Assembly: GCA_030153785.1 (NCBI GenBank)
Contig: JASKLF010000008.1
Location: forward strand, 23,753 to 87,752
Source: a bacterium
GTDB lineage: Bacteria > Synergistota > GBS-1
Reading direction: 5' to 3'
Length of the DNA stretch: 64,000 bases
Below are positions 58,469 to 60,768 of this stretch, piece by piece. The notes under the pieces were generated by a model. It was not told the origin of the DNA, did no database searches, and was given only the letters and a program-made list of their open reading frames with translations. The position numbers and the translations under genes were made by a program. How positions within the stretch are numbered: the stretch's first letter is position 1; each line of letters opens with the position of its first letter.

Positions 58469-58894
58469 GTGAAATGTTTGAAAACCCCAAAAGAAATCTT
58501 AAAAAGTAAGGGCATAAATCCTTCCTATCAGAGAATAAAGATATTAGAGTATCTTCAGGGGAATAAAAGCCATCCTACAGTAGAGATGATATATAAGGAC
58601 TTAGCTCCCAAAATTCCCACATTATCTAAGACGACTATTTATAATACTTTAAAGCTTTTTGCTGAGAAAGGCCTTGTAAGCCTATTAGTCATAGATCAAG
58701 CAGAGATTCGTGTTGACCCTAATGTTTCTTATCATGCCCATTTTCTTTGTACAAACTGCAACAGGATATCTGACATAGATCTGGATGCTGACTTTTTTAA
58801 CTCTGTGAGAGAAAGAGTAGCAAGCAGCGGTTATAGTGTAAGTGAGATTCAAATAACTCTCAAAGGGGTTTGTAAGGAGTGTTCAAAAGGGTAA
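58469..58894 (+). CDS. Fur-family transcriptional regulator (PerR-like)
   Basis: S.QRI.IL, HPT.E.IY, S..T.YNTL..F, H.HF.C..C..I.D and G.C..C. Confidence 0.9.
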   Translation: MKCLKTPKEILKSKGINPSYQRIKILEYLQGNKSHPTVEMIYKDLAPKIPTLSKTTIYNTLKLFAEKGLVSLLVIDQAEIRVDPNVSYHAHFLCTNCNRISDIDLDADFFNSVRERVASSGYSVSEIQITLKGVCKECSKG

Positions 58895-58922: not shown

Positions 58923-58951
58923 TTGACATAAATCGTATTAAGTGATAGACT
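58923..58951 (+). promoter_or_regulatory. sigma70-type promoter of the Trp-leader / symporter operon
   Basis: TTGACA (58923-28), a 17-nt spacer and TAGACT (58946-51) with an extended -10 TG at 58943-44. Confidence 0.8.
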
Positions 58952-58994
58952 ATTTAAAAATTGGTGGAAGCGGAGTTGAGGGGGAGAAAAGAAA

Positions 58995-59069
58995 GTGGAG
59001 AAGAGAAAGGATGGTTTTCTAAAAGTTAAAATTTATGGATTGAATAATTGGTGGTGGCAGGTGCAGTAA
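58995..59069 (+). CDS. Tryptophan attenuator leader peptide (24 aa, MEKRKDGFLKVKIYGLNNWWWQVQ)
   Basis: GTG start after a GAGGGGGAG SD, three consecutive TGG codons at 59049-57 and stop TAA at 59067-69, which lies in the loop of the first attenuator hairpin. Not in the ORF track. Confidence 0.85.
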   Translation: MEKRKDGFLKVKIYGLNNWWWQVQ

Positions 59070-59151
59070 GGCACCTGCCATCCCATGGCTTAAAAAAAAT
59101 AGTTAGGCCATGGAGGCAGGTCGATGTAGACTGTCCTCCATGGCTTTTTTT
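59053..59151 (+). promoter_or_regulatory. Ribosome-mediated transcriptional attenuator (1:2, 2:3 and 3:4 stems)
   Basis: 1:2 is GGTGGCAGGTGC (59053-64) with GCACCTGCCATC (59071-82). 2:3 is ACCTGCC (59073-79) with GGCAGGT (59115-21) plus CCATGGCT (59083-90) with GGCCATGG (59106-13). 3:4 is GCCATGGAGG (59107-16) with CCTCCATGGC (59135-44), followed by T7. Confidence 0.88.
59106..59151 (+). terminator. Conditional intrinsic terminator of the attenuator
   Basis: A 10-bp perfect GC-rich stem, extendable by CAG/CTG, followed directly by TTTTTTT (59145-51). Confidence 0.88.
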
Positions 59152-59200
59152 ATGGGAGCCTGGGGGGCTCCCTAAATTTTTTGAAAGGAGGTTGTTTTAA

Positions 59201-59293
59201 ATGAGCGTAGGAGTTATGGTAGGTTATGTTTTATCTTTTGTTTTCCTTCTTGGAGGGATAGTATACGCGTTGATGGGAGGTAGGAGAATATGA
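59201..59293 (+). CDS. 30-aa single-TM microprotein, probable symporter accessory subunit (MSVGVMVGYVLSFVFLLGGIVYALMGGRRI)
   Basis: Strong SD AAAGGAGGT, ATG at 59201 and one hydrophobic helix with a basic C-terminus. Its stop overlaps the symporter start (ATGA at 59290-93). Not in the ORF track. Confidence 0.8.
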   Translation: MSVGVMVGYVLSFVFLLGGIVYALMGGRRI

Positions 59294-60741
59294 GTTATAT
59301 CATTGCTATAGTAGTTTACATTTTGGCTATGCTGGTCATAGGCTTTGTTAGTTATAGGAAAGAGGGTGAAAGGGGATATTTTCTTGCAGGAGGTAGACTT
59401 GGACCATGGCTTGTTTCCGTTTCTTTCTTTGCTACATACCTTAGTACTAGCGCCTTGTTGGGAGGTGGAGGCAGCGGCTATATTTTTGGCTTCGGCTGGA
59501 GCGCTTACCTTACTATGTTTCACGTCTTATTTGCTGTTTTATCTTGGATAGTAGTAGCGCCTAAACTTAAGGAGTTTGTCGAGGAGAAAGGAATACTAAC
59601 CATACCAGAATTTTTCCGTGTAAGGTACGACAGTAAGGCTCTCCAAGTTATTTCTTCTCTTGTTGTAATTGTTTTCTTTTCGTTTTATATGATTTCTATA
59701 TACAAAGGAGCTTCAAACTTACTTCAGGTCATGATGGGCATACCGTATAAGTATGGAGTGTTTTTGGTTGCCATTCCAGTGATACTTTATACTTCTATAG
59801 GAGGGTTTAGGGCAGTAGTTTTAACGGACTTCGTTCAGGGTATGATTCTTCTTTTCGGCGCGCTCTCTCTATTTGGGGCTTTGGTATACAAAATGGGTGG
59901 GTTATCAGCTGGATTAGAAGCTTTGTCTAAGATTACCCTTCCTGGTGGGGTTTCGGGAAAGGCTTTGATGACACTGGGAGGTTATGGTCCTCCACCGATA
60001 GTCAAATCAGGGATGATGGTGCCTTTCTTGTTGAGCTTAACTTTTGCTATAAGTATAGCTCAGCTTTCCAGTCCTCAACTCATAATAAGGTTTTATGCAG
60101 CAAGGGATAAAGAAGTGATAAGAAAAGGAATGCTTTTAACCCCAATACTTATAGGGTTATTTGCGGTTACCGTTTTCTCTATCGGTCCATTCGCACATCT
60201 TTTTGTCCAAGGTGTTAAGGATCCAGATCTTGTAATTCCTATGTTGGCTCAGAAGATTTTTCCGGAAGCTTTTGCTTCTTTAATTTTAGTGGCGGCTTTG
60301 GCAGCTGCTATGTCGACTATTAACTCGAATTTAATGGTTTTAGCTAGTTCCTTGGTGAAAGATATTTTAGGTTCTAAGAGTGTGAAATTTGCTAGAATAT
60401 CTGTGATTTTCTTAGGGTTAATATCGCCTATTCTAGCTTTAAACCCTCCTGGTATAATAGTTACAATTATAGGGTCCGCATTTTCTGTCATAACGTCTAC
60501 ATTTCTTGTTCCTTTATTAGCAGGACTTTATTCTAAGAATCCGTCTAGATTGGGAGCCGTGTTTTCCATGGTAGGTGCAGTTGCAACATGCATGATATGG
60601 GAGGCCTTTTTCTATAGGAAGTTCTTTATTTACAGTGTGGTTCCTGGATTGATAGTTTCCTTTGTTTGTTATTACGTTGGGGCACTAATAGCTTCACCTG
60701 TAGAGAAGGAAAAAGAGGCCGGCTCACCTACTTCAACTTGA
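59290..60741 (+). CDS. Sodium:solute symporter (SSS; PutP/PanF-like), predicted tryptophan transporter
   Basis: YFLAGGRLG, SFFATYLS, TIPEFF..RY, YT.IGG.RAVVLTD.VQG, PQ...RFY and LAAAMST.NS, with about 13 TM segments. The substrate is inferred only from the Trp attenuator. Confidence 0.88.
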   Translation: MSYIIAIVVYILAMLVIGFVSYRKEGERGYFLAGGRLGPWLVSVSFFATYLSTSALLGGGGSGYIFGFGWSAYLTMFHVLFAVLSWIVVAPKLKEFVEEKGILTIPEFFRVRYDSKALQVISSLVVIVFFSFYMISIYKGASNLLQVMMGIPYKYGVFLVAIPVILYTSIGGFRAVVLTDFVQGMILLFGALSLFGALVYKMGGLSAGLEALSKITLPGGVSGKALMTLGGYGPPPIVKSGMMVPFLLSLTFAISIAQLSSPQLIIRFYAARDKEVIRKGMLLTPILIGLFAVTVFSIGPFAHLFVQGVKDPDLVIPMLAQKIFPEAFASLILVAALAAAMSTINSNLMVLASSLVKDILGSKSVKFARISVIFLGLISPILALNPPGIIVTIIGSAFSVITSTFLVPLLAGLYSKNPSRLGAVFSMVGAVATCMIWEAFFYRKFFIYSVVPGLIVSFVCYYVGALIASPVEKEKEAGSPTST

Positions 60742-60768
60742 AGTAGGTGAGCCAAAAAATTTTTTTTG
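60721..60768 (+). terminator. Long perfect inverted repeat over the symporter stop, probable intrinsic terminator
   Basis: GGCTCACCTACTTCAA (60721-36), C, TTGAAGTAGGTGAGCC (60738-53), then A6 and a T run. Confidence 0.65.

Follow-up and report, generated by a model that had tools for sequence, protein, structure and literature searches.

The window analyzed here is a 64,000-nucleotide stretch of contig JASKLF010000008.1 from a bacterium of the Synergistota lineage GBS-1, and the locus in question is a tryptophan-codon leader that precedes a two-gene operon on its forward (+) strand. The unit opens with a sigma-70-type promoter (58923..58951; −35 TTGACA at 58923-28, 17-nt spacer, extended −10 TAGACT at 58946-51; 10/12 consensus matches) and a leader open reading frame (ORF) of 24 codons with a GTG start (58995..59069), which carries three TGG codons at 59049-57 and ends in WWWQVQ. 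The leader RNA can form a 12-bp hairpin 1:2 (anti-antiterminator; 59053..59082), with the leader-ORF stop codon in its loop; an antiterminator 2:3 (59073..59121; −28.3 kcal/mol, z −5.9); an intrinsic terminator 3:4 (59106..59151; −28.2 kcal/mol, z −5.75; stem 59106/7-59145, T7 at 59145-51); and, 3′ of the terminator, an extra hairpin 5:6 (59154..59172) that is possibly a second, weak terminator. These are followed by the ORF of a 30-residue single-helix membrane protein (59201..59293), whose stop codon overlaps the start of the next gene, and by that gene itself, which encodes a 483-residue transporter of the sodium:solute symporter (SSS) family (59290..60741; PF00474, E 3e-61). The promoter, leader, hairpins, terminator and both genes lie where an initial annotation of the window had placed them. 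Its antiterminator needed refinement: the 3′ arm of hairpin 1:2 does pair alternatively, but the structure consists of two helices, an outer one (59073-79 with 59115-21) and an inner one (59083-93 with 59103-13), and only the outer, switching helix uses that arm.

The core region (59040-59160) has a folding energy of −61.7 kcal/mol (z −6.9; 0/200 shuffles as good), and the separate z-scores of hairpin 1:2, antiterminator and terminator range from −4.3 to −5.9. No Rfam family reached its gathering score in the window, and among the 15 weak Rfam matches at E up to 10 there was no Trp leader model, Trp_leader included. T-box control was considered and rejected, with no Rfam T-box match at the leader and the genome's one T-box on another contig.

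We compared the locus in the window's genome (G000) with those in three other genomes of its family (G001, G002 and G003; locus L001 is the same as the G003 locus and was counted once). These three encode symporter orthologues of 76-87% identity, and in the other 27 relatives searched the best symporter match was ~30% identical or there was none. The Trp-rich upstream ORF that the initial annotation had proposed to look for does accompany the orthologous symporters: the leader precedes them in 4/4 family genomes. Each of these loci has a promoter, a leader ORF that is open and ends in WWWQV(L/Q), the helices described above (hairpin 1:2 with 12-13 bp in 4/4), the 30-residue ORF and the symporter. 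In G002 the leader-symporter unit lies in a different gene context. Across the phylum, the exact hairpin pattern occurs in 4/268 genomes.

Genes for tryptophan biosynthesis, which the initial annotation had proposed to look for, are present as a trpEGDCFBA operon in G000, G001 and G003, with an additional trpB2 in G001. In G002, an assembly that is 96% complete so that a gap is possible, trpE, trpC, trpA, trpB and trpB2 were not found; in a synteny comparison aimed at a true loss of the operon, neither G002 nor G003 yielded the neighbouring gene. A paralogous WWWQ leader precedes trpE in all three genomes that have the operon. In G000 this leader lies at C9, minus strand, ~70230-70530 (L131; also L129, L130), and has two U-tailed hairpins. 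A 13-mer over WWWQ has exactly seven matches in the four genomes, four at the symporter and three at trpE, and five further matches with one mismatch. The seven leaders compared below are these four SSS leaders and three trpE leaders; their helix pairs were tabulated by motif anchor, a MAFFT alignment of all seven being out of register.

Despite diverged 5′ sequence, the leader ORF is open, led by a Shine-Dalgarno sequence and in frame with WWW in 4/4 orthologous leaders; in 6/7 leaders it is the strongest such start that shares the frame of the Trp codons, and in the seventh the second-strongest. The promoter by itself is not above chance (12 promoter-like sites versus 8.3 in shuffles), and TTGAC with a −10-like hexamer occurs 100-127 nt upstream of the Trp codons in 7/7 leaders. 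Covariation, which the initial annotation had also suggested, is limited but apt: the triad 59089C-59107G-59144C is U-A-U in G001, with both alternative pairs preserved, and a palindromic hexamer in segments 2, 3 and 4 is of the CCAUGG type in SSS leaders and of the CCGCGG type in trpE leaders. When the genome was scanned for leaders with WW, using filters that excluded the trpE leader, the symporter leader ranked first of 9.

Beyond the family, the upstream regions of 81 symporter loci held no convincing Trp leader other than those of the close orthologues, and 401 genomes from the phylum of G268 had no close symporter orthologue at E 1e-55. A metagenome pattern scan gave six matches, three of them the G003 locus and three GC-rich ones without a symporter, which were dropped. 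Other genomes of the phylum have NWWW leaders too (L225, L226; L211-L213, L215, L220, L222, L223, L231, L234); these stand before trpE-, trpD- and trpB-like genes and, in two genomes, before the gene of a membrane protein that is NhaC-like by eye.

The switch was modelled by masking the ribosome footprint, with a direct-path barrier calculated from the structure that precedes segment 4 to the terminator. In the window leader, masked folding gave the terminator without a ribosome or with the ribosome at the stop codon, and the antiterminator with the ribosome at Trp 2 or 3; the shift on blocking that the initial annotation had predicted is therefore reproduced. The barrier to the terminator was 0-6.7 kcal/mol without a stall and 10.1-17.1 kcal/mol with one (7/7 leaders, 37 and 65 °C), which fits a co-transcriptional switch, as expected. 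In the SSS leaders the inner antiterminator helix is present in all modelled states, and it is the 7-bp outer helix that, in these models, decides whether segment 4 gets a toehold. Without a ribosome, segment 2 would be retained by hairpin 1:2, and a ribosome that has reached the stop codon would cover it; in both non-stalled states 59115-21 would stay free as a toehold for segment 4, leading to the terminator. A stall of the ribosome at Trp 2 or 3 would release segment 2, whereupon the outer helix would take away the toehold and allow read-through. The released segment 4 may pair into the next hairpin as well: the 4:5 duplex has an energy of −22.5 kcal/mol, matched by 2/1000 shuffles in the window and by at most 4/1000 in each of the seven leaders, and the extra hairpin is present 3′ of the terminator in 7/7. 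Since hairpin 5:6 often still wins over 4:5 at equilibrium, a relay of two terminators is no more than plausible.

The initial annotation's proposal of trpL-type attenuation is borne out by conservation, by the paralogous trpE leader and by folding. This sequence evidence speaks strongly for an attenuator of the trpL type and for control of the symporter by Trp, and the attenuator very probably governs import of tryptophan or of a direct source of it. The Salmonella his attenuator, with its six alternating segments, offers a parallel for a register shift through more than four segments; here, in contrast, U-rich runs follow both 3:4 and 5:6, clearly so at trpE. The leader resembles E. coli trpL (attenuator mechanism as in PMC9413887) in its short ORF, in the tandem Trp codons over segment 1, in the mutually exclusive pairings 1:2, 2:3 and 3:4 and in the U tract. 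It differs in its transporter target, its three Trp codons, the extra downstream hairpin, the two-part antiterminator with the constant inner helix, the lack of an Rfam Trp_leader match and a predicted TRAP site on the leader start.

TRAP (MtrB) scores above its cut-off in 4/4 family genomes and is found in 98/268 Synergistota genomes, with a patchy distribution by family. In 4/4 family genomes mtrB lies between dnaE and pfkA (in G000 at C4:79341-79535, minus strand; L191). The protein can be aligned with solved TRAPs across the residues that PMC1474065 names as binding RNA and Trp, with numbering transferred by alignment; the same paper gives 9-11 NAG repeats for natural TRAP targets. The predicted site in the window (58968..59009, + strand) comprises nine NAG triplets, five GAG and four AAG, with spacers of 2,2,3,2,1,2,2,1; it covers the leader ORF's start codon together with its Shine-Dalgarno sequence and lies in a region that is unstructured (z +0.6). 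Nine NAG repeats are likewise found at the SSS leaders of G001 and G003, and not at that of G002.

When 1,443 gene starts from a simple gene caller were ranked by a TRAP score, trpE came first and the symporter leader start was exceeded by trpE alone; over 60,914 windows, counted as distinct sites, the trpE start was 6th and the symporter leader 7th. Shuffles matched the score in 3, 0 and 1 of 2000 cases for the SSS leaders of G000, G001 and G003, respectively, and in 0-3 of 2000 for the three trpE starts, whereas the three paralogous trpL starts scored low (87-1763 of 2000 shuffles as good). In a wrong-spacing control the G000 leader fell to 547 of 1,443. Ranking data unseen when the score was set include the trpE starts of G001 (5.85) and G003 (4.6) and the G001 trpB2 (4.6). 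This trpB2 is a stand-alone gene (G001:C10; L124) with the TRAP-like site just upstream of its start. The second-ranked gene start (4.6; G000:C1:69110-70246, minus strand) belongs to a membrane protein that is YkvI-like by eye and may be a further TRAP target or a chance match. No other WWW leader in the phylum exceeded 2.3, among 30 loci sampled from >120 matches. At trpE, the TRAP-like site at the start together with the WWWQ leader makes it probable that attenuation and translational repression act on one operon.

The predicted site on the symporter leader misses the antiterminator (59073-121) and overlaps no helix, and its simplest action would therefore be to block ribosome loading, followed by default termination. 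Once loaded with Trp, TRAP would wrap the NAG repeats and so cover the ribosome site of the leader, keeping ribosomes from loading, and transcription would terminate, a course of events that we consider reasonably likely. Because such a block gives default termination, expression would require both low free Trp and uncharged tRNA-Trp, the latter sensed through the stalled ribosome. In B. subtilis, TRAP controls translation of trpP. The B. subtilis regulon (accessible parts of PMC1474065, PMC3064811 and PMC7430163) has in common with the one predicted here a TRAP whose residues for binding RNA and Trp are conserved, nine NAG repeats, binding sites that cover those of the ribosome, and a transport gene among the targets. 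It differs in that the site proposed here is on a leader-ORF start rather than on an antiterminator, that the host is a member of the Synergistota, and that uncharged tRNA would be sensed by ribosome stalling, where B. subtilis relies on a T-box and anti-TRAP. The initial annotation had set the attenuator against Firmicutes, with TRAP as an alternative to attenuation; neither contrast applies here, with a host from a Synergistota lineage, TRAP encoded in 4/4 genomes and a predicted site on this very leader.

The symporter was assigned to the SSS family by PF00474, by TIGR00813, whose cut-off it exceeds, and by its fold: the model (pLDDT 95) matches the folds of SGLT, SiaT and CHT1, and the ESM Atlas returned generic SSS clusters only. 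S342, with T343 adjacent, is invariant in 63 symporter sequences; the two may be the counterpart of the Na2-site hydroxyl pair in core helix 8 of PutP. The PutP/PanF-like character given in the initial annotation holds insofar as these families score best, but neither reaches its curated cut-off (PanF 231.7 of 328 bits; PutP 210.2 of 515.5), and ActP (55.4 of 1099) and MctC (65.5 of 670) are far below theirs. With PutP, PanF, ActP, MctC and SiaT (accessible part of PMC7918813) the protein shares family, fold and the small upstream membrane ORF of some SSS operons; it differs in staying under all substrate-specific cut-offs and in forming a clade of its own with Archaeoglobales proteins at ~50% identity. 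Its closest named relatives are from 'bacterium GBS-1' (85%) and, as a fragment, 'Synergistetes bacterium' (76%).

Two midpoint-rooted trees, one of 150 of the 234 collected symporters (short and some redundant sequences excluded) and one of 54 of those 150, recover a sister clade with support of 0.975 and 95. Clearly Tyr-rich leaders precede 5/11 of its members, four of these with a small ORF. The sister-clade symporters in other Synergistota that have Tyr-rich leaders and terminators are at L149, L156, L162, L163 and L169; the symporters at L155 and L157 have leaders that are rich in Cys or mix Cys with Tyr, a hint that the sensed amino acid has changed. The 30-residue protein is 47-60% identical across 4/4 genomes, with changes mostly at third codon positions. 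Three orthologues score against NF045580 (symporter small accessory protein) with 15.6-16.5 bits (E 0.007-0.014; window 16.5) against a cut-off of 35, and the protein is probably an accessory subunit of the symporter.

Tryptophan is the simplest cargo because the operon stands alone and is kept in a genome in which no trp genes were found; accessory peptide and symporter together would supply it. Judged from sequence, Na+-driven import of L-tryptophan is the reading of the cargo that we somewhat favor, with indole-3-acetate a possible but lesser candidate and other substrates unlikely. TnaT, TrpX and TrpP are not known to be SSS proteins. Mtr, TnaB, AroP and COG0733 transporters (accessible parts of PMC12621469 and PMC5343134) resemble the symporter as Trp-responsive uptake genes, but none belongs to the SSS family, and tryptophan is never mentioned in the main text of the SSS review PMC7918813.

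Taken together, we propose that two Trp sensors act in series on one leader, that the SSS clade imports tryptophan or indole-3-acetate, and that trpE is likewise controlled by leader and TRAP, a combined reading to which we assign a probability of about 0.55. Several points weigh against an attenuator, probably gated by TRAP, that controls tryptophan uptake. Only four orthologues are available, most stem positions are invariant, one terminator pair is broken in G001, and the U tracts are weaker, shorter or broken in relatives. An equilibrium switch was obtained in only 3/7 leaders; in 4/7 the terminator persists with a probability of at least 0.84 under stall, so that the switch depends on kinetics. 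The TRAP score is of our own making and was defined after this leader had been seen; five sites genome-wide outscore both Trp loci, 44, 7 and 33 of the 1,443 starts reach the leader's score under three other schemes, and the G002 leader has no good site (507/2000 shuffles as good). Regulation, moreover, does not prove substrate, as C. glutamicum TrpP illustrates, a protein annotated by homology and neighbourhood and concluded not to be a Trp transporter (accessible part of PMC11995493).

Some of these points would suit a plain trpL-type attenuator in which a purine-rich Shine-Dalgarno sequence and Lys, Glu and Arg codons give rise to the NAG repeats incidentally, with TRAP acting only at trpE and trpB2. 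The leader's rank varies between scoring schemes (1 to 44 of 1,443), four of the nine triplets are the weaker AAG, G002 encodes TRAP and lacks the site, and the G001 leader stays high (14) under the wrong-spacing control too. Against this, the shuffles that so rarely reach the score preserve composition, the low-scoring trpL starts also have Shine-Dalgarno sequences, and three genomes preserve the spacing even though the 5′ parts of their leaders fail to align. We regard the plain attenuator as possible but the less likely account.

The proposed regulation would be the same if the cargo were indole-3-acetate, converted to tryptophan by an aryl-CoA ligase, indolepyruvate:ferredoxin oxidoreductase (IOR) and an aminotransferase, which we hold to be a tentative alternative. 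IOR alpha above its cut-off and PaaK-like ligases are encoded in 4/4 genomes; M. maripaludis is cited in PMC4162585 as having a second route that is fed by aryl acids, and some SSS members transport short organic acids (accessible part of PMC7918813), although the models for ActP and MctC are far from matching. Two paaK paralogues in G000, G001 and G003 have Phe-rich and Tyr-rich leader ORFs with hairpins, so that aryl-acid salvage looks starvation-controlled, but no exact WWWQ leader occurs at paaK or IOR in the four genomes, and the iorA and paaK-1/2 starts have TRAP scores of only 1.15-2.55. In G001-G003 there is a third PaaK-like gene, whose Shine-Dalgarno sequence is overlaid by four spaced NAG triplets (13-28 of 2000 shuffles as good); this gene was not found in G000, though argH of the same block is also missing from that assembly. 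One sister-clade symporter (L020) is followed by an acyl-CoA synthetase, whereas no enzyme is co-transcribed with the symporter studied here.

The third PaaK-like gene (L201, L202, L203) is a candidate indole-3-acetate CoA ligase. The leaders of the two paaK-like paralogues lie in G000 upstream of 143230 on C1 (minus strand; L116) and upstream of 154847 on C7 (minus strand; L120; further loci L117, L118, L121 and L122); these genes probably serve starvation-controlled salvage of phenylacetate and 4-hydroxyphenylacetate, and pheA and tyrA domains are present despite their Phe- and Tyr-rich leaders.

Other cargoes are improbable. Indole or anthranilate, which the initial annotation had offered as precursors, would suit the three of four genomes with trpEGDCFBA and the trpB2 of G001, but is unlikely because both leader and transporter are retained in G002, where no trpE, trpC, trpA, trpB or trpB2 was found, subject to the possible gap in that assembly. 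A PF01212 search, made with tryptophanase in view, gave one strong match of ~354 codons per genome. Proline or pantothenate would agree with the best family scores and with the database labels of relatives, but the scores miss the PanF and PutP cut-offs, closer relatives of PanF lie in another clade and Trp control of such a transporter makes little sense. Least probable by far is an untranslated leader whose termination depends solely on TRAP or RNA structure, with the TGG repeats no more than stem sequence: stem 1:2 does include Trp codons 2 and 3, and B. subtilis TRAP can directly promote termination (accessible part of PMC3064811), but the predicted site ends ~45 nt upstream of segment 1, the first TGG is mostly unpaired yet invariant, Shine-Dalgarno-led starts stay in frame across start-to-Trp distances of 15-20 codons, and the trpE leaders share the Trp codons without a TRAP site on the leader.

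Ribosome-mediated attenuation and TRAP are taught as alternative solutions of different phyla. The attenuator alone would be a classical mechanism with a new target; what a specialist would not expect is that TRAP probably gates the leader ORF. If the proposal of serial sensors is correct, a Trp leader ORF with a TRAP site at its start joins both sensors into one two-input gate, made up of a 79-residue protein and a 220-nt RNA and thus accessible in vitro. It would also provide a substrate class for an SSS clade shared with Archaeoglobales and currently labelled proline or pantothenate symporter, and it points to a TRAP regulon in Synergistota. Full-text literature searches, which did not cover subscription reviews of trp regulation or RegPrecise, so that an earlier prediction is possible, turned up no report of a Trp-importing SSS protein, of a Trp leader before one, or of a TRAP site on a leader ORF.

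The operon lies between a PerR/Fur-family regulator gene and rpsL in 3/4 family genomes; in the window the upstream neighbour, at 58469-58894, is the PerR/Fur-family regulator. Before the rpsL promoter stands a closing element (60721..60767, + strand) of a 15-bp hairpin (60721-53), A6 and T8. The closing hairpin noted in the initial annotation is thus present, but six A residues separate its stem from T8, it contains the symporter stop codon, and the terminator scan listed it on the minus strand only. DNA of the locus also occurs in oil, hydrocarbon, shale-gas and terrestrial metagenomes (four studies). Among contigs from RNA runs, none of which was informative on expression, those of X12 cover no more than two pieces of the coding region; X11 probably represents DNA, and X15 had a small share. 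Elsewhere in G000, at ~11515 on the minus strand of C1, an Ile/Leu/Val-rich leader ORF with a strong terminator precedes an ilvN-like gene.

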